DNA of 64,000 nt from a virus. Below, piece after piece: positions 3,175 through 62,353 of this stretch; within the stretch, counting starts at the first letter, position 1, and every line of letters starts with the position of its first letter. The position numbers and the translations under genes are program-made. Under the pieces are notes generated by a model. That model did not search any database. It was given only the letters and a program-made list of their open reading frames with translations, and was not told where the DNA came from. Location of the stretch: IMG/VR virus record IMGVR_UViG_3300045988_135688. One strand, given 5' to 3'.

Positions 3175-3180
3175 TGGTCT

Positions 3181-3678
3181 TTAAAGCGTTGGTTGGTCAA
3201 TACTGAAATTTAACGAAAATGTATAGGCGGACACAAGTCGGTCTGGGTTCTGTAAGTCCTGAACGTCCTGATAACTCAACTTTGCACCTGTTTCAAAACC
3301 CGTGCATCTTATCACCTGCTTTGCCGATTCTCCCCATATATCATTCCATATAGAGAAAGAGGATGAACCGTATGGCGTACCGGGAGTGGCAGGTATCACA
3401 TTGGTTATATATGAATAGAACGAACGGATATTAGTCTTTACCGTTTCCACATCTCCCAAAGCGGCAAATGTTATGCTTCCTTCCGTTGGCTGGTAAACAG
3501 GCGTGACAGGTTCGTACACCTTCTGACCGTTCTTGTCATACCATTTTTCGGCATAGGCTTCCTTTCTTGTCGGCAAATCCCATAATCCCTTGCTTTCAAG
3601 TATATACAGCCTGTATGTGGCATACAAATCCTTTGCCGTATCGCTTCCTTTCTTTATAAAATATTTAGATATAGCCAT
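3181..3678 (-). CDS. Hypothetical tail protein in distal-tail (Dit) position
   Basis: 165-aa ORF, first gene after the tape measure, ends 6 nt before the tail-fibre start. Function inferred from gene order only. Confidence 0.45.
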   Translation of the reverse strand: MAISKYFIKKGSDTAKDLYATYRLYILESKGLWDLPTRKEAYAEKWYDKNGQKVYEPVTPVYQPTEGSITFAALGDVETVKTNIRSFYSYITNVIPATPGTPYGSSSFSIWNDIWGESAKQVIRCTGFETGAKLSYQDVQDLQNPDRLVSAYTFSLNFSIDQPTL

Positions 3679-3771: not shown

Positions 3772-3843
3772 GGTGCTTTGGATGAGTGGTTTAGTCAACG
3801 GTCTGCAAAACCGACAACAGCGGTTCGATTCCGCTAAGCACCT
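3772..3843 (+). tRNA. tRNA-Cys (anticodon GCA)
   Basis: 72-nt cloverleaf: acceptor GGTGCTT/AAGCACC, T arm AGCGG-TTCGATT-CCGCT, anticodon loop CTGCAAA, 13:22 mismatch and U73 discriminator as expected for tRNA-Cys, 4-nt variable loop, no encoded CCA. Confidence 0.85.
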
Positions 3844-3880
3844 CAAGTGATTGGATTTTTTTTGTTCATGATTAATTTCA

Positions 3881-10608: not shown

Positions 10609-11145
10609 ATGACAAACCAAGAAATGTTTTTAAAGAGATTAACTCTCTTGAATATTCCTCTATCGCTAGAAGGAAAGGAACTTCCATCAGATTTGAAAGC
10701 AAAGATTATGCTTATGCGTGTATCTTACGACAAAGCTGCAAAAGCATTCGATGATGATATGCAACAGGTTCTTAAAGAAATAAAGAAGGAAGGATATGAC
10801 GAGCGCGCACAGAAAATCAATCGCATGAAAGAGATTGACGGTAAGGAAGATGCAACAAAAGAGGAAAAGAAAGAAGCGGATGAAATCAGAAAGACAGAAG
10901 AAGATTTCAACAAGGAAACAGAAGAACTGAACAAGGCATACTCCGAAGCATACCAAGAGAAAATGAAAGAGGAATGTGATATGAAGCCTAGATACTTCGC
11001 CTTTGAAGGATTCACTAAAATAATTGAACTCATTGGTACTGACGGTGCAATCAAGGTGAAATGGAACTCTCCCGAAGCATTGGAAATACCAAAGGAGGAA
11101 TTCATCTCGCTTATCGCAACAAACTTGGTAGATAACCTCGAATAA
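10609..11145 (+). CDS. Hypothetical Lys/Glu-rich coiled-coil protein (178 aa)
   Basis: ORF track; 14 nt after the previous ORF. Antisense ORFs in the same span look like low-complexity shadows. Confidence 0.6.
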   Translation: MTNQEMFLKRLTLLNIPLSLEGKELPSDLKAKIMLMRVSYDKAAKAFDDDMQQVLKEIKKEGYDERAQKINRMKEIDGKEDATKEEKKEADEIRKTEEDFNKETEELNKAYSEAYQEKMKEECDMKPRYFAFEGFTKIIELIGTDGAIKVKWNSPEALEIPKEEFISLIATNLVDNLE

Positions 11146-11173
11146 TATATAAGATATTAAAGTTTACTGTATA

Positions 11174-11392
11174 TTTTATATATGCTTCATTTGGAGTCAG
11201 GTTATTAGCCTAAGCACTTTGAGTGCTACGTTGGATGAGAATGATATATAGTTACCTACGGATGTTTACCCAAGTCTGTAGCTCTAAGTTAAGTGGTTAA
11301 AAGGAGTAGCGTATTCGGTGAAACGGTGCTGCTTATGAAAACCTCATCCAACATTGGCGATGGGTATTTAACGGGAGTAATCCCGACTTATG
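11174..11392 (+). ncRNA. Orphan IscB-type omega-RNA (HEARO-like) paralogue: ~20-nt candidate guide plus ~200-nt scaffold, no adjacent iscB
   Basis: ORF-free gap. Colinear blocks shared with the iscB leader (32131-32340 minus strand): AGTCAG start, GAGAAT..ATATAGTTACC, GAAAACCTC, CGATGnGnATTTAACGG, AATCC(C)GACTTAT. The 10-bp helix 11230-11239/11343-11352 is kept by compensatory substitutions relative to the iscB copy. GTAA tetraloop hairpin at 11372-11385. Confidence 0.6.
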
Positions 11393-11545
11393 TTGAATAA
11401 ACATTAATTTAAAAGACAATGGAAGCAACAAGAAAGATGTTTCTTATAAGAAATTGAAATATATTTCATATGGGTTGATTGATGTGACGAATAAATGAAT
11501 TTCAGATTTATAATATGATTTAATGTTTTTAACAATAAAACGCAC

Positions 11546-12022
11546 ATGAATAAGCCGTTTTCTATATTGCTATTTTTTTTGTTACTGTCGTGTTCTTGTT
11601 CACGCAAGCTACTTCCATCTTCGACAAATACAACCATAGTAGACCACAACACGACAGTAACGGAAAGAGTAGTATGGCAATCAAAAATAATAACTCTTCC
11701 AACAGAACACATACAACATACAACATTTGAAGATAGTTCACACTTGGAAACATCATTAGCCGTATCAGACGCTAAAATAATGTCGGATGGCAGGCTTTTT
11801 CATAGTTTGAAAAACAAGAAAGACTTTCTACAAGACAGCATCCCATCCTTGGAAAAAGAAACGGTAGTGACGAAAGATTCGATAATAACCGTGGAGAAAA
11901 TTGTAGAAGTAAAGGTAGAAAAGGAATTGTCTAAATGGCAAAAAATACTAATCAATCTTGGATACATAGGTATCGGTTTCATATTGTTTTCAGGTTACAA
12001 AATAGCCCGAAAGTTCGTGTAA
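11546..12022 (+). CDS. Lipoprotein with C-terminal transmembrane anchor (unimolecular-spanin-like topology)
   Basis: N-terminus MNKPFSILLFFLLLSCSC (signal peptide plus lipobox Cys). C-terminal hydrophobic helix ILINLGYIGIGFILFSGY followed by KIARKFV. Confidence 0.6.
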   Translation: MNKPFSILLFFLLLSCSCSRKLLPSSTNTTIVDHNTTVTERVVWQSKIITLPTEHIQHTTFEDSSHLETSLAVSDAKIMSDGRLFHSLKNKKDFLQDSIPSLEKETVVTKDSIITVEKIVEVKVEKELSKWQKILINLGYIGIGFILFSGYKIARKFV

Positions 12023-12056: not shown

Positions 12057-13136
12057 TTATGGAGCGTAATCTTCAACCATATTATAGGTGGTATTTACCC
12101 TTGTGGCTCTTGCTGCAATATAATAATCATAAGAAAAATCTCTACTAACATTAAAGGAATACATAGATGATCTATATGTTCCTTTTGCCGGAACCTGTGC
12201 AGTAAGTCCTGTAAGTAATGAACCAGCATTTTCTCCAGCTTCTGGAACTGTTCTTGTCCTCATTAACACAAGAACTATACCACGTATAGTAACAGATGAC
12301 CCACTATTATTTGTTATAATGAAGTTGTATGTAATTTGGTTATTAGAAGAGTTCCATGTACCAAATGCTTCTATTACGTATAGAGATCCAGCTGCATGAA
12401 TAGTCATTGTTTTTGGTGTTACTGGAATAGGTATGTATATTCCTTGTTTTAATTCATCATCTACTCCTATTTTATTAGATGACAAGAAAAAAGCTACTTT
12501 CCATTTACCTACATAACTACCTATATTTAATAACCTTATAGATACTGAATCAGTAAACATACTTTCAGATGTTACTAAAATGTATCTAGTATTTTGTAAA
12601 AGTCCTACCCCTGCATACATTTCAGAAAATGGAGTTCCTTGATAGCTTAAATAGGATAGCAAAATGTTATCATCAGTATTTGTTGTCTGTTCAAGTTGTA
12701 TTTCTAGATTATTAGATGTGTCCAAATATACATCTGATGGAACGTCATCTCCAAAAGGAACTATAGCATTATGATTATATCCGTTGAAATCCAATATCCG
12801 ATAAGGTGCTGAATCTCCACCAGTAGGAGCATTATATCCCCAGTCTACACCATCAAAAAGGTCTTTTAGAAATCCGCTATTAAGCGTTCCTGGTGACATG
12901 TATCCCACTACACTTAGACCACATAAACCATCATTAGCTTTCCAATAATCAGAACGATAATCTAAGTATGGTTGCCTCACAGGTTTATATTTACTCCATT
13001 TATTTATTTTCCCATGCGTATTTGCACACGCATATCCCAAATCATAACCATCACTAGTAGGACCGATACCTAGAGTAGGATATACATCACTATCCAATCC
13101 GACAGGTGCGGTGATTTTACCGTTAGAGTGACCCAT
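12057..13136 (-). CDS. Cassette A large protein (359 aa); N-terminus paralogous to 29614-30624, C-terminus unrelated; putative receptor-binding / tail accessory protein
   Basis: MGHSNGKITAPVGLDSDVYPTLGIGPTSDGYDLGYAC aligns with MGHSNGKITAPINLGGDVYPTLGIGATSNGYDLGYAC of cassette B. The first 32 nt are identical in both copies. Function inferred from location in the tail operon. Confidence 0.7.
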   Translation of the reverse strand: MGHSNGKITAPVGLDSDVYPTLGIGPTSDGYDLGYACANTHGKINKWSKYKPVRQPYLDYRSDYWKANDGLCGLSVVGYMSPGTLNSGFLKDLFDGVDWGYNAPTGGDSAPYRILDFNGYNHNAIVPFGDDVPSDVYLDTSNNLEIQLEQTTNTDDNILLSYLSYQGTPFSEMYAGVGLLQNTRYILVTSESMFTDSVSIRLLNIGSYVGKWKVAFFLSSNKIGVDDELKQGIYIPIPVTPKTMTIHAAGSLYVIEAFGTWNSSNNQITYNFIITNNSGSSVTIRGIVLVLMRTRTVPEAGENAGSLLTGLTAQVPAKGTYRSSMYSFNVSRDFSYDYYIAARATRVNTTYNMVEDYAP

Positions 13137-13280
13137 AGACTACACCTCCACAAATTTATTGCAGACGATATTGCCGCCCATTGTCAAACTACCCGTCACA
13201 CGTACATCACCATCAATAATGACAGCTTGTGACAAATCAAACTCTTCTGGTACCTCACTACCATCTAAGGCTATTATCTC

Positions 13281-13356
13281 ATAAAGCCCCTCTGTCGGGC
13301 TAAAGCCCCTCTGTCGGGCTAAAGCCCCTCTGTCGGGCTAAAGCCCCTCTGTGCTC
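13281..13356. repeat. 19-nt tandem repeat x4 (minus strand unit GACAGAGGGGCTTTAGCCC)
   Basis: aaagcccctctgt recurs at 13283, 13302, 13321 and 13340 (period 19). Each junction forms GGGC-TTTA-GCCC. Confidence 0.9.
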
Positions 13357-13389
13357 CCTCGCTTCGCTTCGGTCGCACACCAAATTTCC
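13349..13389. other. 41-nt GC-rich box, identical to 30825-30865
   Basis: ctgtgctccctcgcttcgcttcggtcgcacaccaaatttcc is identical in both cassettes while the flanks have diverged. Contains TGTGC/GCACA closing arms and a GCGAAGC motif. Confidence 0.85.
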
Positions 13390-13402
13390 AGTAATAAACA
13401 AA

Positions 13403-13807
13403 CTAATCTTCATAATTATTATTTTTTAAATATTTTGTAACACTATTCATTACGCATTCTACACACCATCCTAAAAGATATGCAAAATGCTCGTCTTGTC
13501 CATTTTTATAACCCATAGAAATATCGCAATAGTCAAACACATCACAAACATAATGAGTTGATTCGTGAGCTACAGTATTTATTTTTAGACCATCATTTGA
13601 TAGCCAAATAAGTACACCTAAATTATTTGTACTTTTCTCTCTTACATTGATAGTCAAGCCATAACAGCGTTCAATTTCATCTTTAGATATATCTATCGGG
13701 TCATGATTGTGGTTGGTAAATTTTCTATTGATTTTTTTCCATTGGTCATTCCCCACTGCAACATACAGTTTAAGGGGATATATTTTAGGATCATATTTTG
13801 TTATCAT
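13403..13807 (-). CDS. Small putative zinc metallopeptidase (HExxH)
   Basis: 134-aa ORF with VAHESTHYV (HExxH). Its stop overlaps the start of small ORF A. Confidence 0.6.
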   Translation of the reverse strand: MITKYDPKIYPLKLYVAVGNDQWKKINRKFTNHNHDPIDISKDEIERCYGLTINVREKSTNNLGVLIWLSNDGLKINTVAHESTHYVCDVFDYCDISMGYKNGQDEHFAYLLGWCVECVMNSVTKYLKNNNYED

Positions 13808-22629: not shown

Positions 22630-23890
22630 GCAATTAAATACTAATTTACACATATTTAACTAAATTAGTTATGTTATAATTTAATTTATAGTTATATTTG
22701 TGACATGAAACGAGCATATAAATATAGACTTAATCCTACTCCTGAGCAGATTGTTTTCTTCAACAAATCTTTCGGGTGTTGTAGGTTTGTGTATAACTAT
22801 ATGCTTGGTAAACGTATAGAAGCGTATCAGCGTGACAAGACGAAGATAGGATGGGTTGAACTGGCTAAGATGCTTACAGAACTTAAAAAGGAAGATGGGA
22901 AGGAATGGCTTTCGGAAGTATCAAACGAGTGTCTGCAACAATCCATAAGAAATATGGACAGCGCGTTCGTGAAGTTCTTCCGTGAAAAGGCAGGGTTCCC
23001 AAATTTCAAGGCGAAGCATTACAGCCGACAGTCATACAAGGCTATAAATTCGGTGTCTGTTGACCTTGACAACAACAAGGTAAGACTTCCAAAGATCGGA
23101 TGGGTTAAATTCTTTCCGAACAGAAAGTTTGACGGTAAGGTATGTTCTGTCACGGTAAGCAAGACACCAACAGGTAAATATTTCATTTCTGTCCTTGTTG
23201 ACGATGGAAAGGAAATACCTGTAAAGCCTGCTGTAAGATATGATACGTCTATCGGTATAGATGTCGGTATAAAGGATTTTGCAGTTTGTTCAAACGGTGA
23301 TGTGTATGCCAATCCCAAATATCTTGAGAAATCGGAAGCAAGGCTAAAGGTGTTGCAAAGAAGATTCTCAAAGACAAAGAAAGGCTCCAACCGAAGAGAA
23401 CGGGCAAGAAAAATATTGGCAAGACAGTATGAGAAGGTTTCCAACCAACGCAACAATTTCCTGCATCAAGTCACATCAAAGATTGTCCGTGAAAACCAAA
23501 CGATAATCATTGAGGATTTGAATGTAAAGGGTATGTTGAAAAACCACCGTCTTGCAAAATCCATATCATCCGTTTCATGGAGCGAGTTTTTCCGACAGCT
23601 TGAATACAAGTGTGAATGGTATGGACGCAACCTTATACGTATCGGACGTTTTGAAGCAAGTTCCAAGACGTGTATATGCGGATACGTTAATAGTGAATTG
23701 AAACTCAGTGACCGTGAATGGGTTTGCCCGAAATGCGGAAGGCACAATGATCGTGACATTCTCGCTTCGGTGAACATCAAACGGTTCGGACTAATATCAC
23801 CCTTGGTAGAAGGGGTTGAGGACGTGGAGTGGTCGGCAGTAGTCGGGGCAGTGAAGCGTCAATATGTATATGTATAATTACCTGTATATA
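22621..23890 (+). mobile_element. IS200/IS605-like non-autonomous element carrying tnpB only (no tnpA)
   Basis: The left 180 nt (22621-22800) recur at 60918-61086 with ~96% identity in the coding part. Inserted exactly between the terL stop and the portal start. Boundaries are approximate. Confidence 0.6.
22705..23877 (+). CDS. tnpB: TnpB RNA-guided endonuclease (IS605 OrfB family)
   Basis: N-terminus KRAYKYRLNPTPEQ. RuvC motifs IGIDVGIKD, IIIEDLNVKGM, NDRDILASVNI. Zinc finger CICG...CPKCG. Confidence 0.9.
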   Translation: MKRAYKYRLNPTPEQIVFFNKSFGCCRFVYNYMLGKRIEAYQRDKTKIGWVELAKMLTELKKEDGKEWLSEVSNECLQQSIRNMDSAFVKFFREKAGFPNFKAKHYSRQSYKAINSVSVDLDNNKVRLPKIGWVKFFPNRKFDGKVCSVTVSKTPTGKYFISVLVDDGKEIPVKPAVRYDTSIGIDVGIKDFAVCSNGDVYANPKYLEKSEARLKVLQRRFSKTKKGSNRRERARKILARQYEKVSNQRNNFLHQVTSKIVRENQTIIIEDLNVKGMLKNHRLAKSISSVSWSEFFRQLEYKCEWYGRNLIRIGRFEASSKTCICGYVNSELKLSDREWVCPKCGRHNDRDILASVNIKRFGLISPLVEGVEDVEWSAVVGAVKRQYVYV

Positions 23891-23911
23891 ATTACCTATT
23901 TATAATTACCT
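23868..23911 (+). repeat. Three direct copies of TATAATTACCT spanning tnpB stop to portal ATG
   Basis: gTATAATTACCTgtataTAATTACCTatttaTAATTACCTatg, read directly. Confidence 0.8.
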
Positions 23912-25444
23912 ATGGAAATTTTAAAATTAGACGTTTTATTACGAAAAGAACCTTTCAAAGTGGCACTTCCGTCAAGAGGTGACGATGGGAGAGGTGGAGG
24001 AACAAAGAAAAAGCCAAGACGCTCCACTTTGATATACAAATATCTGTCACAGGATGACTTTCTAGCACAATGGGATACATCAGGACACTATATACACAAC
24101 AGACCCGACTGGAAAGACAGTATACCGTCAGACGAGGATGCCACATCATCGGATGATGAAAGCGCGAATGTAGGTGCTCAGAAAAGAAAAAAGAAATTGG
24201 CATCAACTCCATACGTACTGCAAAGACGAGCATTTCCTCTTCAAAGGATGATACACAAGAAAAGGGTATCACACCTATGCACCAATCCTCTTAAATTCCA
24301 GATAAAGAAAAGCGCGTCAAACCAGCAGAACAGGGATAAGCTGACAACATACAAGGAATACTGGACTGATTCTCTCATGGAAACAGCCAAGTTTGAACTT
24401 ATAAGCGAAGCCGGAAAGGTAGGGGATGCTGCCATATATATATATAAGGATAAGGACGAGATAAAATACAGGTCTTTCAGCTACTCAAAAGGAGATATAC
24501 TGTATGAACATAAAAACAGAAGAGGGGAAAGAATAGCTTTCGCAAGGGAATATACAACCACATATATCTCGGCTGATGGAGAAGAGCATACAGACACACT
24601 TGTCGATGTATGGACTAAAGATGAGTTTTACACGCTTGATTCCAACGGAGATATAGCAACGGATATTGACGAAAACGGAAATATCATACAACTGCATCAA
24701 TTCCATAACCTGGGATTTATACCTGTAGTATATCTACGGCTTGAACTTCCATTTTGGGGGGCAGTACAGGACTTGATAGACGATTTCGAGTTCTTAATGT
24801 CAATGATAGGAGAATACAACACACGACAGGCATTCCAAATGCTACTTATCAAGACTAACGGAAGAATAAACATTCAAAGAAACGGATTGGGAGGAACTTC
24901 CATTTTACGTGTAGGAGCAGAAGATGATGCACAGTTCATGGGTAAGATGGACGCTTCAAACTCACTGTTCACCGAAATAGATAACATATACAACGGGATA
25001 CTTGACGGAAGCGGTGTTGTTCCGCCAATGCAATCATCATCAGGTGACAGACCTACTGGAACAACGGCAATGTATTACGAGCCGGAAATGGAATGGGCGA
25101 GAAGTGATGCACAAATGATGAATACAGCCATAAATGACATGGCCAATATATTCAAATACTATGTAGGAGTAATGGAAGGTGACGCAACAGGTTATAACGC
25201 TCTAAGAATAAACGCTACCATAGAGCCATACTCGTACATAGATTTCTCTGAATGGAACAACACAATCGTTCAGCTTGTAAACGCCCGAATAATATCATTG
25301 CAGACAGCAAGAGAGGAATGCGATTTCGCTGCAAATAATGAAGATGATAGAATGGACGAACAAGACAGAAGATTAAACGATATGGAAGCTAGGGTAGTAA
25401 TAGAAGAAAACAATGAAAACAACGAAAACAACGATAACAGCTAA
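23912..25444 (+). CDS. Portal protein
   Basis: 510 aa, the next structural gene after terL (ignoring the tnpB insertion). Acidic C-terminal tail; size typical of portals. Confidence 0.75.
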   Translation: MEILKLDVLLRKEPFKVALPSRGDDGRGGGTKKKPRRSTLIYKYLSQDDFLAQWDTSGHYIHNRPDWKDSIPSDEDATSSDDESANVGAQKRKKKLASTPYVLQRRAFPLQRMIHKKRVSHLCTNPLKFQIKKSASNQQNRDKLTTYKEYWTDSLMETAKFELISEAGKVGDAAIYIYKDKDEIKYRSFSYSKGDILYEHKNRRGERIAFAREYTTTYISADGEEHTDTLVDVWTKDEFYTLDSNGDIATDIDENGNIIQLHQFHNLGFIPVVYLRLELPFWGAVQDLIDDFEFLMSMIGEYNTRQAFQMLLIKTNGRINIQRNGLGGTSILRVGAEDDAQFMGKMDASNSLFTEIDNIYNGILDGSGVVPPMQSSSGDRPTGTTAMYYEPEMEWARSDAQMMNTAINDMANIFKYYVGVMEGDATGYNALRINATIEPYSYIDFSEWNNTIVQLVNARIISLQTAREECDFAANNEDDRMDEQDRRLNDMEARVVIEENNENNENNDNS

Positions 25445-26807: not shown

Positions 26808-27236
26808 CTATTTAATCGTAACCCAAACCTGTTTGCCACGCTTTATCGCATCGTCAATCAACTTGTTCAATTTGTCAGAAGTATAGCGTGATTCGGTAAG
26901 TCTGCCTTTTGATGTATTGTTACCTACAAGGATACATCCGGCAGAATCCTTTGCTGTATTCCCAGCGTGAAAAAGAATACCCTCAAAATGAGGAACATTC
27001 AACAGTCTTGGCATATTACGCCCGAATTTTGGGGACCAGTTGTATATAACCTGGTATCTTCCATAAGGAATAGCAGATTCAGCATAAACCTTCTTCTCGT
27101 TTCCATCAAACACTCCATTCTTATTCACGTCAACAACACGATCTTCAAGCGTATTACTGAAAAACTCACCATCAATATACAAACGCCCTATAGTATAATC
27201 AGGCTTACACCATTTTCTTTCTACCAATAGTTCCAT
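26808..27236 (-). CDS. DUF5675-like protein, candidate peptidoglycan hydrolase (YkuD-like HxGN...GCI motif)
   Basis: ILFHAGNTAKDSAGCILVGN motif. 142 aa, standalone gene. Lysin role is an inference. Confidence 0.45.
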   Translation of the reverse strand: MELLVERKWCKPDYTIGRLYIDGEFFSNTLEDRVVDVNKNGVFDGNEKKVYAESAIPYGRYQVIYNWSPKFGRNMPRLLNVPHFEGILFHAGNTAKDSAGCILVGNNTSKGRLTESRYTSDKLNKLIDDAIKRGKQVWVTIK

Positions 27237-27324
27237 AGTTAAAATGTATTTAGTTTTACAAAGCTACAAAATAAACACGTATATTTGCACACATAATAAA
27301 ACATTTTATAAAGCATATACAAAA

Positions 27325-27765
27325 ATGTATAAATCAAGACAAATAGCAGATTGGATAATACATAAGACACATGGCAATATAACACATTCAAAATTACAAA
27401 AATTGTTATATTATTGCCAAGCGTGGCATTATACAATTTTCAATGAGGTTTTATTTGATGAAAGAATTGAAGCATGGGCGCACGGCCCTGTTGTACCATC
27501 CCAATTCAGCAGATTTAATAACATAGATTTTTTCCAAAACATAAAAGTAAAAGATTGTGAGAACATTAAACTGAAAAGTAAAACAGAACAATTACTGAAT
27601 GAAGTTGTTGGAATATACAATAAATGTACTGATAGACACCTTGAATTATTGGTAAAAAGAGAAGTTCCTTGGAGAGAAACAAGAGGAAATATACCAGAGT
27701 TTAAGAAATGCCAAAAAGAAATAAAATTGGACCTAATGAAACAATATTATATAAATCTAAATTAA
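27325..27765 (+). CDS. Panacea/DUF4065 (SocA/GepA-like) domain protein 1
   Basis: HSKLQKLLYYCQAWHYTIFNEVLFDERIEAWAHGPVVP is the characteristic N-terminal Panacea pattern. ORF track 27244; first plausible ATG at 27325. Confidence 0.7.
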   Translation: MYKSRQIADWIIHKTHGNITHSKLQKLLYYCQAWHYTIFNEVLFDERIEAWAHGPVVPSQFSRFNNIDFFQNIKVKDCENIKLKSKTEQLLNEVVGIYNKCTDRHLELLVKREVPWRETRGNIPEFKKCQKEIKLDLMKQYYINLN

Positions 27766-27970: not shown

Positions 27971-28444
27971 TCATTGAATTAAATCTTTCTTATAAAACAA
28001 TCTAGTTGTTTCTTTTGAAATTTCCACATGACACTTATCTGCCTCTCTATAGCCAATTCTAGCTTCTTTCCAAGGTTTTTCGTTGCAAATTGACGCTTCC
28101 AATTCAAACATTGTCCAAGTATATAATTCCTCCAAAATACTAATAACAAAATCCTGTTGGTCTTGCGTCAACTTTTCAAATTCCTTATCTACATCTTTTT
28201 GGGTTTCATTTGAATAGGTCAATTCTTCATACAGCATATATTTATCATTAAGACTACCGTAAACCTTACGACTAATAGGGCCATGTACCCATGCCTCAAA
28301 AGAATCCTCAATTAATTCTTTATCAAAATATGCCAAATGATAAGCATCGCAGTAAAATAATAATTTCTGCAATTTCAAGTGTGACATTGGCCCATAATGT
28401 TTTAAAATATAATCTGATAAAATTATAGAATCTATAGTTCCCAT
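27971..28444 (-). CDS. Panacea/DUF4065 (SocA/GepA-like) domain protein 2
   Basis: HLKLQKLLFYCDAYHLAYFDKELIEDSFEAWVHGPISRKVY. Convergent with protein 1. Confidence 0.75.
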   Translation of the reverse strand: MGTIDSIILSDYILKHYGPMSHLKLQKLLFYCDAYHLAYFDKELIEDSFEAWVHGPISRKVYGSLNDKYMLYEELTYSNETQKDVDKEFEKLTQDQQDFVISILEELYTWTMFELEASICNEKPWKEARIGYREADKCHVEISKETTRLFYKKDLIQ

Positions 28445-28837: not shown

Positions 28838-29624
28838 GATTGCAGACTATTACTTCCAAGCAAAAAGACTTGCAAACGGTATAAAATCGTCAACCAGAGA
28901 GCGTGCGGAGAAGTTCTCTAAAGACCTTCTAGCCATATTCCTTTTAGCAGGGGCTAAATCGTTCAAGTCAATATCAAAACTCCCGGATAGCCAAAAAGAA
29001 AAAGTGCTAGAACTGACCAAAAAGTTCCGTGAGGATATATATAACGACATATACCAATATGTACTGGAAAGCAATAAACTGTCACTAGAACTAAACGATG
29101 ATCTTGGATGGGAGTATATTTCAATGACGGACAACGGCATTAAGGAATACATGGAAAGGACATACGGTGGAGAAACGACAAAGCAGAGAATAAACACAAA
29201 TACAAACAGATTCCGCGCTGTTGTTGAAGTATATCTTGCCAATACATTACTGTCAATAAAAACGAACAATATAGAAAAAATAACGGATGAGGTTCAAAAG
29301 AAGATATGGAACAACATATCATCACCATATAACGTATCATTTATTCCGCCAAGCAAACAGAAACACTATGGGAGAGGATATGCTACAAACGGTATAAGCC
29401 AGTTGTATGTTATAGAACAACAGATGATTCTAGGAATTTTCAATGAAGCAAATTACAACTCATGGAAAAACATTCCAAATTTCAAGGGATGGAGGACAGC
29501 AGTAACGTCTAAAAATCCATGCCAGTTCTGCATTGACGAGCAATACAGAATACACACAGACAGACCTAAGCTGCCGTTCCATGCCCATTGCTTGTGTATA
29601 TTATATCCGGTGTTTAATACATAA
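28812..29624 (+). CDS. Head morphogenesis / minor capsid protein (SPP1 gp7 / Mu F-like)
   Basis: The C-terminal motif NPCQFCIDEQYRIHTDRPKLPFHAHCLCILYP resembles the conserved Cys/His end of the Mu F family. Confidence 0.65.
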   Translation: MINKEEISKIADYYFQAKRLANGIKSSTRERAEKFSKDLLAIFLLAGAKSFKSISKLPDSQKEKVLELTKKFREDIYNDIYQYVLESNKLSLELNDDLGWEYISMTDNGIKEYMERTYGGETTKQRINTNTNRFRAVVEVYLANTLLSIKTNNIEKITDEVQKKIWNNISSPYNVSFIPPSKQKHYGRGYATNGISQLYVIEQQMILGIFNEANYNSWKNIPNFKGWRTAVTSKNPCQFCIDEQYRIHTDRPKLPFHAHCLCILYPVFNT

Positions 29625-30624
29625 TAACTTGATAATCAACATACCATTGAGTAACATTACCATAAGATGGGGGATTACCAGCATCAACCACGTCATTACG
29701 GGTAAATGATTTAGGAATATTTGTGCACGAAGGCATCAATATATTACCTGACCATTGACCTGTATAAGATCCATCTTTCGCTCTCCATCTATATCTAGCG
29801 TATGGTCTGCCGGATGAAGCAACGTAATCACTAGAAGTGTTATTTGTAATGTTTAATCTGCATTTAGAAGAAGTAGACCCATTTGTCAACTGTCCGTAAA
29901 CAGAGAATCCAGAAGCGTTGGCTGTTGTATCTCCAAGTGTAATAGAAAGACTTTGAGTAACCACTATCGGCTTACGAATAAATCCGTCAGATGTAGTAGG
30001 GATTAAGCATAATACATTTCCACTGTAATCACAAAAATAACCCTTAATATAAATATATGTATCCCCCATAGATATGAGATTATTGCGATTAAGGGTAATT
30101 GAAATTTTTCCTGTACTATCAATACTACTTACAACGAAAACTCCAGAATCCACCAACTTCTTTAATTGATTATATACTTCCACCTTTATCTTCATATTAG
30201 ACCAAGTAAATCCCCCAAGTATTTTACCCCAATTATACCTAGAATCAGCCCAATATGGTGAAATTGTAAGTACAAACGTTGTCTTTGTAGCATCTACAGG
30301 ATTAGTTAGGATATCTTTATCTATTGTAAGAGGTTTAGCCCCATGATCGTATCCATCAAAATCAGTAAGCCTATACCATGTTTTAGGTCTATCATATACT
30401 AATTTCTTATTTACAGAATCATAAATTATACCAGGTAAACTAGCGTTGTCAAATGAAGGGCTAGACGCTTCTTTGGGTTTTATATAACTCCACATATTAA
30501 TTTTTTCGCTAAGACAAGCATACCCTAAATCATAGCCATTACTAGTAGCACCAATACCAAGGGTAGGATATACATCACCACCCAAATTAATGGGTGCGGT
30601 GATTTTACCGTTAGAGTGACCCAT
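29614..30624 (-). CDS. Cassette B large protein (336 aa from MGHSNG); paralogue of 12057-13136 at N-terminus only
   Basis: See cassette A. The ORF track starts at GTG 30630; the conserved ATG is at 30624. Confidence 0.7.
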   Translation of the reverse strand: MGHSNGKITAPINLGGDVYPTLGIGATSNGYDLGYACLSEKINMWSYIKPKEASSPSFDNASLPGIIYDSVNKKLVYDRPKTWYRLTDFDGYDHGAKPLTIDKDILTNPVDATKTTFVLTISPYWADSRYNWGKILGGFTWSNMKIKVEVYNQLKKLVDSGVFVVSSIDSTGKISITLNRNNLISMGDTYIYIKGYFCDYSGNVLCLIPTTSDGFIRKPIVVTQSLSITLGDTTANASGFSVYGQLTNGSTSSKCRLNITNNTSSDYVASSGRPYARYRWRAKDGSYTGQWSGNILMPSCTNIPKSFTRNDVVDAGNPPSYGNVTQWYVDYQVIMY

Positions 30625-30889
30625 AATCACCCCCTTCCTCTATAACGGTAAAAGAACCTTTACAAACAACAATGCCATTATAACTGATACTACGACAATG
30701 AATATCGCCATCAATTATAACAGCATCAGAAATGTCATAATCACTAGGAAGTTCCCCACCACATAGTGTTATAACTTCGACTGCCCCTGTGCAGCTAGAC
30801 TGCCCCTGTGCAGCTAGACTGCCCCTGTGCTCCCTCGCTTCGCTTCGGTCGCACACCAAATTTCCATTTACAAACAAATTAATTTTCAT
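30611..30889 (-). CDS. Cassette B small beta-helix-like protein (92 aa), intact, reads through a 19-nt tandem array
   Basis: ORF track. MKINLFVNGNLVCDRSEAREHRG... has the same N-terminus and 41-nt box as cassette A. Its start overlaps the iscB stop (ATGA). Confidence 0.65.
   Translation of the reverse strand: MKINLFVNGNLVCDRSEAREHRGSLAAQGQSSCTGAVEVITLCGGELPSDYDISDAVIIDGDIHCRSISYNGIVVCKGSFTVIEEGGDYGSL
30776..30832. repeat. 19-nt tandem repeat x3 (minus strand unit GCACAGGGGCAGTCTAGCT)
   Basis: gactgcccctgtgc at 30779, 30798 and 30817 (period 19). Forms a GCAG-TCTAG-CTGC hairpin. Confidence 0.9.
30825..30865. other. 41-nt GC-rich box, identical to 13349-13389
   Basis: Direct comparison of the two loci. 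Confidence 0.85.
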
Positions 30890-32130
30890 AAATTTACTTT
30901 CGTTCGCTTTTCAATTAATATACTTTTTCTTGTATCTATCAACCGCAAATGCTTACAATTGATAGAACCTTTGTTTACTTTTGTACCGTCAAGTTTCCGA
31001 ATATCAAAGTAACCACTATTTCTCCTACTAAAAATGTAATACAACTCTTTTTGGTATTCAACCAAGTCAAACAATCTAAATCCTTTCACTAAGAATGGTG
31101 CTTGATTGAGTTTCTTTCTGCCACCTTTCAAGAAATTAGCTTTGTGTATTTGTCTGTTTTGGCATCTTACCTTCTTCTGATAGAAATAATAACCTAAAGG
31201 TTTAGCCACAGGATTATCACTGATACACCTTGCATCAACATAATGCTCTTTAGGAAGATTGTTAGTGATACGGGTATTCTTCGTGATATAGCCAAAAGTC
31301 ATACTTACATTAGGATAGATATTCTTTAGCCTATCATAGAAACTCCATCGCATAATCCCCATAAAGGCAGCATTTCTAAATGACTTTCCACGCTTTACAT
31401 TTAATTCAAACTCACCTCTATGATATGCCTTATGGCAAGTTTCACAAAGGGTAATCAAGTTGTTTGGGCTATCACCTCCAGTCTTTCTGCTCTCTATGTG
31501 ATGCACATTCAAGACTTTATCTTTACTCTTACCCTTACAATGTTGGCAAATATGATTATCTCTAAATAACACATATTCACGCACATTGAAGAAATCAAGC
31601 TGTTCTCCTTGTTGGTATTCACTGCCAGATATACTTGGATTATTAATCTTTTGTATATCAAAAGCAGCCGTTTCAACTACGATATTAGTTATCGGTAGGA
31701 ACTTATGTATCTTCTCAACAATAGTCAAATGAGTTTGGATTTTGTTTTCAATAGATGGTGCTATCCAACCTTTACGCTTGGAAGATACCCTATTATTGAA
31801 ACGAGCCTTGCGATAACGAAGCCTACTCCTACGGGTTCTTCTTAATTCCCTACGAGTAGATAGCTTATCCACAATATCGTTTCTCAATTCCACATCTGCT
31901 GCATACAATTCCTTCTCACTTGTTGTTGCTGAAATGCCGATATGCTTGCTACCAGCATCTACACCCAAACTTACGGGCTGTGTATAATCTGTTGTGTCAT
32001 AATCCAATTGAATTGTGAACGGAATACGGCACACAACATGGGCTAGACTGTTTTTTAACAGCCTTCTCACCTTACCAAACCTTTCGGTTGGCATAAGTGC
32101 TTGTCCTTGTTTGTTAATTACGTAAACCAT
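30886..32130 (-). CDS. iscB: IscB RNA-guided nuclease (PLMP, split RuvC, bridge helix, HNH)
   Basis: VYVINKQGQALMPTERFGKVRRLL (PLMP). LGVDAGSKHIGISA (RuvC-I). Arg-rich RRELRRTRRSRLRYRKARFNNR. IVVETAAFD (RuvC-II). HNH CQHCKG...HHIESRKTGGDSPNNLITLCETCH. EHYVDARC (RuvC-III). Confidence 0.9.
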   Translation of the reverse strand: MVYVINKQGQALMPTERFGKVRRLLKNSLAHVVCRIPFTIQLDYDTTDYTQPVSLGVDAGSKHIGISATTSEKELYAADVELRNDIVDKLSTRRELRRTRRSRLRYRKARFNNRVSSKRKGWIAPSIENKIQTHLTIVEKIHKFLPITNIVVETAAFDIQKINNPSISGSEYQQGEQLDFFNVREYVLFRDNHICQHCKGKSKDKVLNVHHIESRKTGGDSPNNLITLCETCHKAYHRGEFELNVKRGKSFRNAAFMGIMRWSFYDRLKNIYPNVSMTFGYITKNTRITNNLPKEHYVDARCISDNPVAKPLGYYFYQKKVRCQNRQIHKANFLKGGRKKLNQAPFLVKGFRLFDLVEYQKELYYIFSRRNSGYFDIRKLDGTKVNKGSINCKHLRLIDTRKSILIEKRTKVNL

Positions 32131-32340
32131 TTTTACTATAAGTCGGATTTATCCGTTAAATGCTCATCGACAATGTTATAGAGAGGTTTTCCGTCAGTAA
32201 CACTATTCCTACCCCACAGAATTGTTTAATCACTGACCTTAGAGCAAGGGGCTTGAGCAAACACCCACTTGGTAACTATATATTCTCTCCTAACGCTTAG
32301 TCTAATCAACTTGGGCTTTTAGCCTAATGGGTAACTGACT
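30886..32340 (-). mobile_element. IscB-type OMEGA element (iscB plus omega-RNA scaffold, no tnpA)
   Basis: Span of the iscB ORF plus the scaffold homologous to 11195-11392. Ends are not defined. Confidence 0.55.
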
Positions 32341-32360
32341 TATGCTATAACCACTCCTAC
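32131..32360 (-). ncRNA. IscB omega-RNA (HEARO-like): ~210-nt scaffold plus ~20-nt candidate guide at 32341-32360
   Basis: 340-nt ORF-free leader directly upstream of iscB, where omega-RNAs are known to be encoded. Homologous to 11195-11392 with a covarying helix (32285-32294 / 32175-32185). Confidence 0.7.
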
Positions 32361-32449
32361 TAGTTTTTCTATGAAAATAATTTAAAATCCAAGCAACAGT
32401 CTATAAGACAAATGTTGTTTTAAAATCTTCGATGGTAGCAAAATTACCA

Positions 32450-32457
32450 CAAATATA
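32450..32457 (-). promoter_or_regulatory. -7 box TAtaTTTG upstream of omega-RNA/iscB
   Basis: + strand caaatata = minus-strand TATATTTG. Confidence 0.45.
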
Positions 32458-32471
32458 ATAAATATTGTGAA

Positions 32472-61138: not shown

Positions 61139-62353
61139 ATGCAATTAGTTTATAAATTTGACATCAACCATTCCGACAGGCTTTGCGCTATCTGCCGTGT
61201 TACGAACAACCTGTACAACCAGGCGTTGTATATTGTCCGTAACGAGTTGAAGGATAACGACAGGTGGCTGTTCTATCCCGACTTGGACAGGATAATGAAA
61301 AATGTCACCAACCTTGAAGGTACGATAAATTACAGGCTTGTGAAATCACACGTAGCCCAACAGACATTGCGCGTGCTTGACAAGGCAATGAAGGGATATG
61401 TCAAGGCTGTAAAGGATTGGTCTAAGAATCCGGGGAAGTATAACGGTAAGCCCGAACTGCCATGCTATCACAAACGTGGAGGGATGAGCAATGCGATATA
61501 TACCAACCAGTCGTGCAAGATACATGACGGGTATATAATCCTTGACCGTGACTTGAAAATACCCGTTCCTCAATGGGAGAAATACAAGGACAGAATCGAA
61601 CGGTTCAAACAGGTTAGGATAATTCCAAAGCGTACATACATGACCGTGGAGGTTGTATATGATTGTGACTGTTCGGATAATGTCGGTACTGGTATGGCTT
61701 CGATAGACTTGGGTGTGAACAACCTTGCCACGCTGGTGTGCGGATGTAATGCGCTATTGTTTTCCGGCAAGGTTATCAAGTCATATAACAGATGGTTTAA
61801 CAAAAAATTATCCATGCTGCAATCCATAAAGGACAGGCAGGGTATAGAGAAACTGACAAACAGAATGAGAAAGATGTATGATAAACGTGAACGGTTTATG
61901 AATGATGCGATGCACAAGACAAGCAGGCGTATCGTTGATTATCTTGTATCACACCATATAGGCACTCTTGCTGTAGGCTACAACAAAGGATGGAAGCAAT
62001 CCGTCAATATGGGCGGAGTAAACAATCAGAAGTTTACATTCATCCCTTTTGCGAGGTTGAGAAGCTGCCTTAGATACAAGTGCGAGCTTGCAGGTATCAG
62101 CTATATCGAACATGAGGAAAGCTACACGAGCAAATGTGACGCTCTGTCTATGGAGGATATATGCAAGCATGAGAGTTATCTCGGCAAGCGTGTCAAGCGA
62201 GGACTGTTCAAGTCGGCAGTTGGAAAGGTTATCAATGCTGATGTCAACGGTGCGCTTAATATCGGTAGAAAAGTATTCGGTGATTCATTTATGATAACTG
62301 ATAGTGGGCGTTGGTATCGCCCCGAACGAATTAACGTTTTAAAATGTGTGTAA
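61139..62353 (+). CDS. tnpB: Divergent TnpB-family RNA-guided endonuclease (degenerate zinc finger)
   Basis: RuvC-like motifs ASIDLGVNNLATL, IEHEESYTSKCD, NADVNGALNIGRK. 404 aa, no tnpA. Confidence 0.8.
   Translation: MQLVYKFDINHSDRLCAICRVTNNLYNQALYIVRNELKDNDRWLFYPDLDRIMKNVTNLEGTINYRLVKSHVAQQTLRVLDKAMKGYVKAVKDWSKNPGKYNGKPELPCYHKRGGMSNAIYTNQSCKIHDGYIILDRDLKIPVPQWEKYKDRIERFKQVRIIPKRTYMTVEVVYDCDCSDNVGTGMASIDLGVNNLATLVCGCNALLFSGKVIKSYNRWFNKKLSMLQSIKDRQGIEKLTNRMRKMYDKRERFMNDAMHKTSRRIVDYLVSHHIGTLAVGYNKGWKQSVNMGGVNNQKFTFIPFARLRSCLRYKCELAGISYIEHEESYTSKCDALSMEDICKHESYLGKRVKRGLFKSAVGKVINADVNGALNIGRKVFGDSFMITDSGRWYRPERINVLKCV

Follow-up and report, generated by a model that had tools for sequence, protein, structure and literature searches.

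The virus record IMGVR_UViG_3300045988_135688, a stretch of 64,000 nt referred to here as the window, carries a 414-aa open reading frame that had been annotated from the letters alone as a catalytically intact IscB with its own omega-RNA. This raises the question of whether the locus is a genuine RNA-guided nuclease element, and if so, how such an element would spread among phages. Our reading, to which we assign a probability of about 0.7, is that it is a non-autonomous ISC element, made up of an omega-RNA scaffold and iscB only, which resides in a phage and has a proposed homing mechanism. The coordinates of the relevant features are given in Table 1.

That the window is a phage genome was borne out by the genes for a tape measure protein, a major head protein, a large terminase and a primase, and the source is a gut phage, probably of Bacteroidales. 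The initial annotation had also counted three OMEGA nucleases, and two TnpB genes were indeed found besides iscB. The first of these, situated between the large terminase and putative portal genes, matched Pfam HTH_OrfB_IS605, OrfB_IS605 and Cas12f1-like_TNB, and the second occurs as an internally deleted version in a related locus, L082.

Table 1. Coordinates of the IscB element, the mini-element and associated genes in the window
Feature	Position	Strand	Basis or remark
iscB ORF, 414 aa	30886..32130	(-)	Pfam, NCBIfam, PDB sequence matches, motifs
Omega-RNA (HEARO) scaffold	32155..32339	(-)	Rfam RF02033, 92.1 bits, E 1.9e-17
Presumed 16-nt guide AGUGGUUAUAGCAUAA	32340..32355	(-)	Flank directly 5' of the scaffold, outside the mobile unit
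Leader, putative source of read-in transcription	32341..32471	(-)	TAnnTTTG box 32450-32457, left hairpin arm
Mobile unit, 1450 bp, non-autonomous ISC/IS200-IS605-type	30890..32339	(-)	5' GTCAGTTACCC ... GTAAATTT 3'
TAM ATGAA, flank sequence	30885..30889	(-)	TGA = iscB stop, ATG = start of 92-aa ORF
Downstream phage genes, outside the element (92-aa ORF and 338-aa protein)	29614..30889	(-)	
Mini-element without iscB, 414 bp	11132..11545	(+)	HEARO 11132-11372, then 173-bp tail
Mini-element guide GCAACAAACUUGGUAG	11116..11131	(+)	In 3' end of 178-aa ORF
Mini-element TAM ATGAA	11546..11550	(+)	Start codon of 158-aa ORF 11546-12022
TnpB 1	22705..23877	(+)	PHROG 506, 1e-130
TnpB 2	61139..62353	(+)	Pfam OrfB_IS605 and TNB
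YqaJ-like exonuclease, phage recombination	62898..63698	(+)	Pfam PF09588

Identity and catalytic residues of the IscB protein

The coordinates and length of the ORF were exactly as annotated, and profile searches placed its product among IscB proteins. It scored 362.9 bits against the NCBIfam equivalog guided_IscB, 'RNA-guided endonuclease IscB' (cutoff 175), and matched Pfam RRXRR over residues 2-175 (2.4e-63) and Pfam HNH over residues 195-238 (2e-10). The NCBIfam IscB and RRXRR matches both start at residue 2 of the ORF, and the top PDB sequence matches were IscB/OgeuIscB (1e-52). All of the hallmarks claimed for it (PLMP motif, RuvC-I D, bridge helix, RuvC-II E, HNH, two CxxC pairs and RuvC-III H/D) could be located. 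The PLMP motif takes the form ALMP at residues 11-14, with ALMPT (11-15) aligning with PLMPT of OgeuIscB, and the split RuvC domain, consisting of RuvC-I D58, RuvC-II E153 and RuvC-III H296 and D299, likewise aligns with the OgeuIscB motifs. An Arg-rich bridge helix (RRELRRTRRSRLRYRKARF, residues 93-111) follows RuvC-I, and the HNH domain, with CQHC 195-198, HH 210-211, N224, CETC 229-232 and H233, lies between RuvC-II and RuvC-III.

Residue conservation was assessed over 32 homologues, down to 58% identity. Invariant among these were D58, E153, C195, H210, H211, N224, C229, C232, H233, H237 and D299, together with R97, R101, R105 and R107 of the bridge helix; H296 was kept in at least 90% of the homologues, and C198 is present in the window copy and not invariant. 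The description of the protein as catalytically intact therefore held, as the catalytic residues are present, unsubstituted and for the most part invariant. On sequence grounds, the ORF is confirmed as a full-length IscB with all RuvC and HNH catalytic residues, in a locus that is real and functional-looking. RNA-guided, TAM-dependent cleavage of double-stranded DNA is predicted for it, with indirect evidence in the empty sites described below, which match guides and have ATG(A) next to them on the 3' side.

Residues 304-414 are expected to form the putative TAM-interacting domain and include eight positions invariant in the 32 homologues (R322, N325, R326, K330, N342, D355, R370 and G373). 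No sequence match of this region to solved IscB structures was detectable, the C-terminal 109 aa found nothing among PDB sequences at E<=1, and a profile of the 32 homologues aligned to solved structures only as far as residue ~337. The AlphaFold model of the protein had a mean pLDDT of 32, too low to be of use, from a shallow alignment of the best 120 homologues, which are 94-99% identical.

Two other identities were considered for the ORF. A type II CRISPR-Cas9 was rejected on the basis of its length of 414 aa, the lack of a REC insertion and a score of 19.9 bits against NCBIfam Cas9d (cutoff 375); no repeat-spacer array was found in the window. The names 'HNH endonuclease' and 'NinG', under which homologues appear in GenBank, would suit an ordinary protein-guided HNH homing endonuclease, next to which the upstream RNA match would be a coincidence. 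However, with all three RuvC segments as well as the bridge helix present, an IscB equivalog score of 363 bits, and a HEARO RNA above the gathering score in cis at nine of the ten iscB loci scanned (the exception being L053), this identity is extremely improbable and was rejected.

The omega-RNA scaffold and its guide

The Rfam model RF02033 (HEARO) passed its gathering score of 83 bits twice in the window. One of these matches lies directly upstream of iscB, as the initial annotation had proposed, and ends 24 nt before the ATG on the same strand; the scaffold probably extends via the CGGATAAATCCG hairpin to ~32134. Compared with the HEARO consensus, this resident copy is short of two small hairpins. 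The minimum free energy of the leader was no better than that of shuffled sequences (z = -0.26), and it is therefore the covariance model that supports the identification as an RNA. A -7 box had also been reported in the leader, and the TAnnTTTG motif is present there, but 90 occurrences in the window against 78 +/- 8 expected amount to chance frequency, and the box is not meaningful alone. Neither this frequency nor the leader energy supports or refutes a promoter or an RNA.

The boundary of the presumed guide was placed where similarity to other copies ends (32339/32340), and its position is as in Meers et al. (PMC10055086). No matching target with a TAM was found for this cis guide. A naive allele would read AGTGGTTATAGCATAA followed by ATGA; an exact search of IMG/VR with the guide and flank returned 0 matches and no naive allele, and the form ...GCATAA/ATGA (the slash marking, here and below, the point of insertion) was not found either. 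Within the window there was no self-target with a TAM for the guide of the resident element or of the mini-element. Matches to the leader by BLAST were limited to the two nearest relatives, L002 and L034, in which it is 92-95% conserved and which keep whole the hairpin within which the resident 5' junction falls. Since no target was found for the cis guide and the junction lies inside a hairpin, the resident copy may currently be unable to home.

The same observations could be taken further, to mean that the resident copy is stranded, with an intact gene and a guide reset by an adjacent deletion, and that it is now inert and persists by descent alone. Besides the truncated hairpin at the 5' junction and the guide with zero exact matches in IMG/VR, the ~1.3 kb of extra sequence and the different junction in the sister phage L002 point in this direction. 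We nevertheless consider it unlikely, as the ORF is intact and under constraint like that of other copies (dN/dS 0.14 versus L002), IscB tolerates mismatches (PMC10055086), and the resident IscB could still serve other omega-RNAs.

Boundaries of the mobile unit and its target site

The boundaries of the mobile unit were derived from 80 related viral loci with unrelated flanks, similarity to which is confined to 32340..30876-30889. Across copies the termini read (A/G)TCAACTACCC ... GTAAATTT/ATGAA, the unit in the window starts with GTCAG, and in nearly all copies the element has ...AAATTT as its end and abuts the TAM ATGAA. Known ISC elements are 1.3-1.7 kb long, mostly lack TnpA, start with GT(CA) and insert at N/ATGA without duplication (Kapitonov et al. 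2016, PMC4810608), and the ends and target found here agree with those described for them. The element in the window is alike in its length of 1.45 kb, in IscB as its sole product, in its 5' GTCA..., in precise N/ATGA insertion without duplication, in having no TnpA, and in the presence of empty sites in close relatives. Judged by these features, 32339..30890 is a textbook non-autonomous ISC/IS200-IS605 element at N/ATGA. Unlike the known elements, however, it resides in a virulent-looking phage and belongs to a clade seen in phage contigs only. The 3' end of this clade is trimmed, a 3' hairpin that is present in a clade at 83-85% identity being deleted, which leaves the iscB stop codon inside the ATGA of the target.

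A single copy of ATGA is found with no duplication, whether the site is occupied or empty, as seen for the mini-element and the lineage-A copies. In ~13-14 of ~19 distinct contexts, the ATG of the TAM is the start codon of the downstream phage gene. As ATGAA encodes the Met-Lys/Asn with which such genes begin, insertions fall at exact gene starts and the TAM is borrowed as a stop, which explains how a 1.45-kb parasite fits into tight phage operons without damage. What had been described as transcriptional fusion with a putative host-range cassette is thus a family-wide junction and nothing special to this locus. The two downstream genes gave no Pfam or PHROG matches, and a host-range role for them is putative. 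The N-terminus of the 338-aa protein is conserved and its C-terminus variable, and in tblastn only its N-terminal 100 aa were matched, by crAss-like phages in which the protein is annotated as hypothetical. The 92-aa ORF carries a 19-nt tandem repeat (30779-30830), which also occurs at 13282-13352. Identical 5' flanks were seen with differing 3' flanks, and vice versa, indicating that deletion or recombination, besides clean insertion, shapes the junctions.

In agreement with the initial annotation, no Y1 TnpA (PF01797) was found among the window ORFs of at least 70 aa that were scanned, a set comprising all but TerL, the tape measure gene and some ORFs that looked spurious. When small ORFs beside bacterial IscB genes were clustered (79 loci), no recurrent one resembled TnpA. 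Only one cluster of any size recurred, with 61 ORFs at 42 of the loci, and it was rejected as a TnpA candidate, apparently consisting of ORFs that overlap iscB itself.

A mini-element without iscB

The second HEARO match (RF02033, 85.8 bits) had been taken, at 11195-11392, as a paralogue validating the resident scaffold. This did not hold, since the two scaffolds are only 72-75% identical and the second belongs to a separate mini-element. Its scaffold is closer to those of a second IscB lineage, whose proteins are 58-62% identical in aa sequence to the resident IscB, and on this comparison it is not a local paralogue. The resident IscB may use its omega-RNA in trans, the low scaffold identity and the closeness to the second lineage making this uncertain. 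Of 24 contigs that carry the mini-element, no fewer than 10 also have IscB.

The mini-element is inserted exactly between its guide-matching target and ATGAA. Empty alleles read GCAACAAACTTGGTAG/ATGAATAAG, and the naive allele GCAACAAACTTGGTAG/ATGAAT, also written ...CTTGGTAG/ATGAAT or ...CAAACTTGGTAG/ATGAATAAG, is present in related phages; at empty sites in general, ATG(A/C) stands directly 3' of the guide-matching target. Among related phages, 22 loci were occupied and 58 empty. The mini-element is 99.3-100% identical among carriers, and over the 22 of them the divergence of the element was 0.17% versus 4.9% for the flanks. For eight of the 22, the nearest relative is a naive phage, and each of the four guide haplotypes at the site is known both occupied and empty. 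A cultured relative, the Parabacteroides phage PF672P2, also carries a mini-element. The mini-element has spread horizontally in a site-specific manner, and the disparity between element and flank divergence fits spread by homing. Its distribution suggests an RNA-guided cut-and-copy process, and general recombination among co-infecting phages combined with a selective sweep could mimic the signature.

Spread by peel-and-paste transposition was considered as an alternative, with a Y1 TnpA supplied in trans from an IS200/IS605 element of the host or of another phage and IscB only restoring the element after excision. Precise N/ATGA insertions without duplication in ~19 unrelated contexts are a TnpA signature (PMC4810608, PMC10055086), insertions at new sites are beyond the reach of homing, and guides are unrelated between sites. 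On the other hand, no TnpA was found among the window ORFs scanned and none recurs beside the bacterial relatives, and the mini-element occupies one single site in four flank haplotypes with near-zero divergence. As TnpA needs just a 4-5-nt motif, repeated insertion at one site would not be expected from it, and we regard this alternative as somewhat unlikely.

Prevalence and selection

A phage copy of IscB had been considered unusual. This was contradicted by the 204 relatives that the clade has among the viral contigs of IMG/VR, the majority of them with 93-97% aa identity and in many phage contexts, by IscB-like genes in 39 GenBank phage records and by the HEARO reported in Staphylococcus phages (PMC13346280). 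In a set of species-representative genomes, the clade was phage-restricted, the sole match above 71% identity being a contig that itself belongs to this phage family. When the 28-36 kb region was compared with GenBank phages by megablast, the HEARO segment alone was matched. Intact iscB was found in 75 of 79 copies, and dN/dS was 0.08-0.19 (about 0.13) against 44 phage copies and 0.13 for the C-terminal domain. The gene is under purifying selection.

Such strong purifying selection, together with the great frequency of IscB within a single phage group, could also mean that the phage has co-opted IscB as a weapon that cuts the naive alleles of competing related phages (marker exclusion), to the benefit of the carrier and not in a purely selfish way. 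The window holds four perfect naive targets, each with ATG, for the guides of sibling phages, and advantages of this kind are known for phage homing endonucleases (review PMC13565253). However, the mechanism is the same as that of homing, phage benefit and drive are indistinguishable here, and the resident guide is without a known target; we consider co-option quite improbable.

Discussion

Returning to the reading of a homing ISC element, we infer its mode of action to be as follows. Read-in transcription from the upstream phage operon or the leader would yield an omega-RNA in which the 5' ~16 nt are flanking phage sequence, serving as the guide, joined to the HEARO scaffold, and IscB would be translated from the same transcript. 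The IscB RNP would then cut double-stranded DNA that matches the guide and has a 3' TAM ATGA(A), in the unoccupied allele that a related phage brings into a co-infection or that a sister genome has. In the occupied allele, target and TAM are kept apart by the scaffold, which would make it immune. Recombination from the occupied genome would repair the break and copy the element in, for which the YqaJ-like exonuclease of the phage is available and could act on IscB-made breaks. Colonisation of new ATGA sites would presumably need a Y1 TnpA in trans. The mini-element would be an iscB-less derivative of the same kind, with its own guide and a need for IscB in trans.

Several known systems bear comparison with this scheme. 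GstIscB of ISGst5 (Meers et al. 2023, PMC10055086) has the TAM TTCAT, the reverse complement of ATGAA and hence ATGAA on the iscB strand, and, as presumed for the window, its guide is flanking sequence 5' of the scaffold, external to the element, and depends on read-in transcription; the catalytic residues are equivalent (D58, H209/H210). In contrast, ISGst elements have an active TnpA alongside, reside in a bacterial chromosome and undergo restorative homing, whereas the element in the window has no TnpA and would probably target the genomes of other phages (non-restorative homing). OgeuIscB, from a human gut metagenome (PDB 7UTN, 7XHT), is the best relative of solved structure (E 1e-52). It shares the order of PLMP, RuvC, bridge helix and HNH, and ATGAAA is compatible with its TAM NWRRNA, but it has 496 aa versus 414 aa, and the C-terminal 80-110 residues are unalignable by sequence.

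The mini-element and the one in PF672P2 resemble PATEs, stand-alone omega-RNAs that are protein-less IS200/IS605 derivatives, in that they have kept the scaffold and ends, have lost iscB and sit at a TAM. A difference is that the mini-element occupies just one phage locus, where it has spread over diverged phage haplotypes. This comparison draws in part on the stand-alone omega-RNAs that Altae-Tran et al. reportedly described in 2021. Free-standing HNH and GIY-YIG homing endonucleases of phages (T4 Seg/Mob; intronless homing) likewise lie between phage genes, are polymorphic among relatives and presumably spread by a double-strand break and recombination in co-infection. Unlike these, the element in the window would recognise its target by a flank-derived RNA guide and TAM instead of protein-DNA contacts, and self would be told from non-self by the presence of the insertion itself.

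As a canonical ISC/IscB-omega-RNA element, the locus adds no new mechanism. Annotation as 'HNH endonuclease', 'NinG' or 'hypothetical' has, however, left a very abundant phage-restricted radiation of IscB in the human gut largely invisible, and its compact 414-aa proteins with short omega-RNAs may interest developers of genome editing. The 22 occupied and 58 empty alleles, with 0.17% against 4.9% divergence, are unusually clean population evidence for the site-specific spread of an omega-RNA-bearing element among phages. With such presence/absence data and the cultured PF672P2 at hand, virus-to-virus RNA-guided homing is directly testable. We tentatively suggest, as a possibility a little short of probable, that gut-phage IscB/omega-RNA elements are TnpA-independent RNA-guided homing drives and that omega-RNA-only mini-elements borrow IscB in trans, as hyper-parasites or as extra guides, the lender possibly being the resident IscB. 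According to a 2026 review (PMC13565253), non-restorative OMEGA homing is still theoretical for phages. If true, the homing drives suggested here would be natural evidence for it, and would represent a multi-guide, phage-borne precursor of CRISPR-like targeting.

Identity and constraint of the IscB protein

The 414-aa ORF, read in the initial annotation as an IscB with all hallmarks, proved to be just that: every hallmark was located (see table), and Pfam and NCBIfam agree. RRXRR matches residues 2-175 at 2.4e-63 and an HNH domain is also found at 2e-10 (Pfam), and in NCBIfam the protein reaches 362.9 bits for the equivalog 'RNA-guided endonuclease IscB', whose cutoff is 175. Among solved structures, the top relatives of the protein were IscB and OgeuIscB (1e-52), with other IscBs, IsrB and small Cas9s ranking next. 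The catalytic residues, previously proposed to be intact, are present (D58, E153, H210, H211 and D299), and are invariant among 32 aligned homologues of at least 58% identity, as are C195, N224, C229, C232, H233 and H237. The gene is intact in 75 of 79 copies, and comparison of the window iscB with 44 full-length copies gave dN/dS of 0.08-0.19, residues 1-303 and 304-414 giving 0.14 and 0.13, respectively. Residues 304-414, the expected TAM-interacting domain, are conserved in an alignment of bacterial homologues; no link between this region and solved IscB structures was found by sequence. A model of the protein reached a pLDDT of only 32 and was not usable, because the best 120 sequences of the homologue search were all near-identical.

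Features of the window and of its IscB (w, window position)
Feature	Coordinates	Strand	Details
iscB ORF	w30886..32130	-	414 aa
IscB hallmarks, N-terminal	ALMP 11-14; D58; Arg-rich helix 93-111; E153		residues
IscB hallmarks, HNH and after	CQHC 195-198; H210/H211; N224; CETC 229-232; H296; D299		residues
Resident HEARO scaffold	w32155-32339	-	Rfam, above gathering score; stops 24 nt short of iscB ATG
Second HEARO scaffold	w11132-11372	+	Rfam, above gathering score
Mobile unit	w32339..30890	-	1450 bp; scaffold and iscB alone
Naive site, perfect match to sibling phage guide	w51098-51113	+	then ATGATT
Naive site, perfect match to sibling phage guide	w57080-57095	+	then ATGCGT
Naive site, perfect match to sibling phage guide	w57810-57825	+	then ATGAAA
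Naive site, perfect match to sibling phage guide	w57941-57956	+	then ATGATT
Tape measure protein	w3922-10101
Major head protein	w18187-19314
Large terminase	w20914-22629
Primase	w42088-43554
TnpB #1	w22705-23877	+	between large terminase gene and putative portal gene
TnpB #2	w61139-62353	+

Boundaries of the mobile unit

The HEARO covariance model (omega-RNA) found two window matches that pass the gathering score. An IMG/VR protein scan with IscB gave 204 relatives, and the 80 loci retrieved from these, mostly at 93-97% protein identity, are spread over a wide range of phage contigs (45-100 kb), some carrying two copies. At the DNA level, the window resembles the 80 loci only across 32340..30876-30889, the flanks being unrelated. 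Junction alignments place the 5' terminus at (A/G)TCAACTACCC, in the window GTCAGTTACCC from 32339, and the 3' end at ...GCAAGTAAATTT, after which comes ATGAA. Confined similarity and aligned junctions thus define the mobile unit. In size, termini and insertion between N and ATGA it matches the ISC transposons, which are mostly non-autonomous, 1.3-1.7 kb long, have 5'-GT(CA) termini and insert at this position without target duplication (Kapitonov et al. 2016, PMC4810608). It also agrees with ISGst5, whose IscB uses the TAM TTCAT, the reverse complement of the ATGAA found here, and whose guide is situated 5' of the scaffold, beyond the element, which makes read-in transcription necessary (PMC10055086).

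An older clade of 83-85% identity (L056-L077) retains an extra nested hairpin, CGCAAGG..CCCATAAACTAAAGATTTATGGG..CCTTGCG, 3' of iscB, placed between the iscB stop and the junction of GTAAATTT with ATGA. This hairpin, deleted in the 93-97% clade, window copy included, may be a subterminal hairpin for a Y1 transposase.

A mini-element with a single insertion site

The second HEARO had been taken for a paralogous omega-RNA, a misreading: it is 72-75% identical to the resident scaffold and forms the 5' part of a separate 414-bp insertion (11132-11545), the mini-element. Among 80 related loci retrieved via the neighbouring 178-aa ORF, 58 are empty and read ...GCAACAAA(C/T)(T/C)T(G/A/T)GT(A/C)G followed by ATGAATAAGCC..., that is, a guide-matching target directly before ATGAA, with whose ATG the 158-aa ORF starts (11546). 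Occupied alleles were found in 22 loci, window included, with the insertion exactly at the target/ATGAA boundary, and each of four target haplotypes is known both occupied and empty. The mini-element diverges among carriers by a mean of 0.17% (maximum 0.7%), against 4.9% (maximum 10.8%) for the carrier flanks (1000 bp upstream and 470 bp downstream), the same as the 4.3% of naive phages; for 8 of the 22 carriers the nearest flank neighbour is a naive phage. Guide-specified homing would predict just this, a near-identical insertion at one site in genomes that have otherwise diverged. A transposase requiring only ATGA would not yield such a pattern, and ordinary recombination combined with a sweep is an alternative to homing.

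The IscB serving the mini-element could come from either of two lineages. Its scaffold core also adjoins, in 80-250-kb viral contigs, a second IscB lineage that is 58-62% identical to the window IscB and too ends in ...AAAGTAA before ATGAAC; mini-element and second-lineage scaffolds are 77-82% identical and have a long AT-rich P1 insertion in common.

Another iscB-less mini-element lies at 3130-3389 of the cultured Parabacteroides phage PF672P2 (L001, OP172820). It comprises a scaffold of lineage A, that of the window IscB (HEARO, 130 bits, 92.7% identical to the resident scaffold), and ~20 nt of the 3' end, then ATGAAT, with which a DUF3127/SSB-like gene begins. The PF672P2 genome has no detectable IscB, and GenBank puts a 59-aa 'hypothetical protein' across its omega-RNA.

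The start codon and the TAM

The final iscB codons in the window are AAT TTA TGA: the element terminates at the second T of TTA, A and TGA come from the TAM, and the ATG of the TAM starts a downstream 92-aa ORF. This arrangement had been interpreted as a fusion to a host-range cassette. The 3' flank, however, starts with ATGAA in most of ~19 distinct contexts (variants ATAAA, ATGAC and ATGAG), and in about 13-14 of these ~19 its ATG opens an ORF of at least 53 aa, including MKTLVFDV..., MKCNFTPMD..., MKKKEIDEG... and MNQVKFVKL..., the last being dUTPase. The ATGA overlap arises because the target motif coincides with Met-Lys/Asn start codons, and is thus generic and does not tie IscB specifically to a host-range module.

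Genes downstream of iscB had no family match in Pfam or PHROG. A 338-aa protein (29614-30630, -) and its paralogue (12057-13136, -) have ~55 N-terminal residues in common (MGHSNGKITAP...DVYPTLGIG...GYDLGYAC) and differ entirely after that. In a dozen related phages the resemblance likewise ends ~38 codons into the gene, and elsewhere only the N-terminus was found, in crAss-like phages, annotated hypothetical. A conserved start with a divergent rest is the modular pattern of tail-fibre/receptor-binding proteins, and a receptor-binding role for the 338-aa protein is plausible.

Perfect 19-nt tandem repeats (30779-30830, 2.7 copies; 13282-13352, 3.7 copies) sit in minus-strand small ORFs, 30611-30889 and ~13140-13412, just upstream of each of these genes, where they bridge the two conserved halves of the small ORF, N-terminal and C-terminal. 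Across 63 related loci the number of copies varies between ~0 and 8, always by exact multiples of 19 nt. For each repeat type a single copy number preserves the frame, as in 23 of the 63; in the window the first ORF is in frame and the second out of frame. The repeat may serve the phage as a switch for slipped-strand phase variation, or the small ORF may not be real. An empty IscB site, ...AATAATT followed by ATGAAGATTAG, lies near ~13413 (-), and the exact equivalent is occupied in L011, L016, L019, L022, L024 and other related loci, between a homologue of the 134-aa ORF (13403-13807) and the small ORF with the repeat. The cassette that holds IscB, one or the other of two paralogues, thus differs between phages.

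The resident guide and its targets

The resident guide, AGTGGTTATAGCATAA, comprises the 16 nt (32355-32340) upstream of the scaffold and forms the left arm of a terminator-like hairpin, which the closest relatives, L002 and L034, have in intact form. L002, 95-96% identical, is the same phage; it has ~1.3 kb of extra sequence here, and its 5' junction differs, reading ...TTGCCATGAGAAAAA followed by GTCAGTT. L034 and L053 have no iscB at this site and carry instead a ~95-aa gene ending in the same ATGA overlap. An exact-match search of IMG/VR gave no allele with the resident guide followed by ATGA. The window 5' junction probably arose when a deletion reached the edge of the element, so that the resident copy may at present lack any site to cleave. 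No further targets of the resident or mini-element guide were found in the window. From sequence matches, four naive window sites (see table) should be cuttable by the IscB complexes of sibling phages.

The hairpin belongs to a conserved intergenic module (window 32341-32471, -; L002 5395-5545; L034 12044-12210) with a TAnnTTTG box, ~100 nt ending in the strong hairpin GGGGTGGTATAG...CTATAACCACCCC, and a T-rich tract. The module, whose hairpin the window element breaks, could be a terminator or small RNA.

Among IscB copies, one 5' flank pairs with several 3' flanks and vice versa. Four different 5' flanks join the same 3' flank, ATGAAATGTAATTTT..., and these four sites are all empty, within ~2 kb of each other, in the related contig L079. 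Intervening genes must therefore be removed, by recombination between two direct copies or by deletions beside a copy. New-site insertions are most simply attributed to TnpA acting in trans; no TnpA was found in window ORFs or beside bacterial IscB homologues.

Genome context and host

The window is a phage genome, with genes for structural proteins, terminase and primase (see table). It further encodes dUTPase, KilA-N/ANT proteins, an SSB-like DUF3127 protein and a YqaJ-like exonuclease; no integrase was seen among the ORFs scanned. Two tnpB genes and the lack of TnpA, both noted in the initial annotation, were borne out, scanned ORFs of at least 70 aa containing no Y1 transposase domain. The host is probably one of the Bacteroidales, inferred from the 92.7% scaffold match to PF672P2 and from a same-family phage contig binned with an Odoribacter MAG.

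TnpB #2 is polymorphic: the related phage contig L082 (8010-8228), binned as an Odoribacter MAG, lacks window 61201-62231 and keeps only the first ~60 nt and last ~120 nt of the region, which has the look of a TnpB-element derivative with an internal deletion, possibly reduced to the guide RNA. At the 3' end of TnpB #1, where its guide RNA would be expected, lies a 14-nt tandem repeat, TATATATAATTACC (3.2 copies, 23869-23913). Adjacent SocA/Panacea antitoxin-like domain proteins (27244-27765, +; 27971-28444, -), a nearby DUF5675 protein (26808-27236) and tRNA-Cys(GCA) (3772-3844, +) were also observed.

Prevalence and significance

The supposed rarity of IscB in phages was overstated, given the 204 IMG/VR relatives and IscB-like genes in 39 GenBank phage records (c-st, Staphylococcus, Ralstonia, Microcystis and others), mostly annotated as HNH endonuclease or hypothetical; one close homologue carries the name 'NinG recombination protein' in nr. 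The occurrence of HEARO in Staphylococcus phages is on record (PMC13346280). A search of bacterial and archaeal assemblies, one genome per species, gave a single match above 71% identity, a same-family phage contig, on which ground the window clade looks phage-borne. Thus the identity of the locus stands as first read, and its rarity, downstream 'fusion' and 'paralogous' second omega-RNA do not.

In the literature searched, no paper demonstrating IscB homing between phages was found, and a 2026 review regards 'non-restorative homing' of transposons into co-infecting phages as theoretically possible (PMC13565253). RNA-guided homing among gut phages, with guide-only elements served in trans, is a tentative reading to which we assign a probability of about 0.4. 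What the locus adds is the population evidence for site-specific spread, together with the logic by which start codon and TAM coincide.
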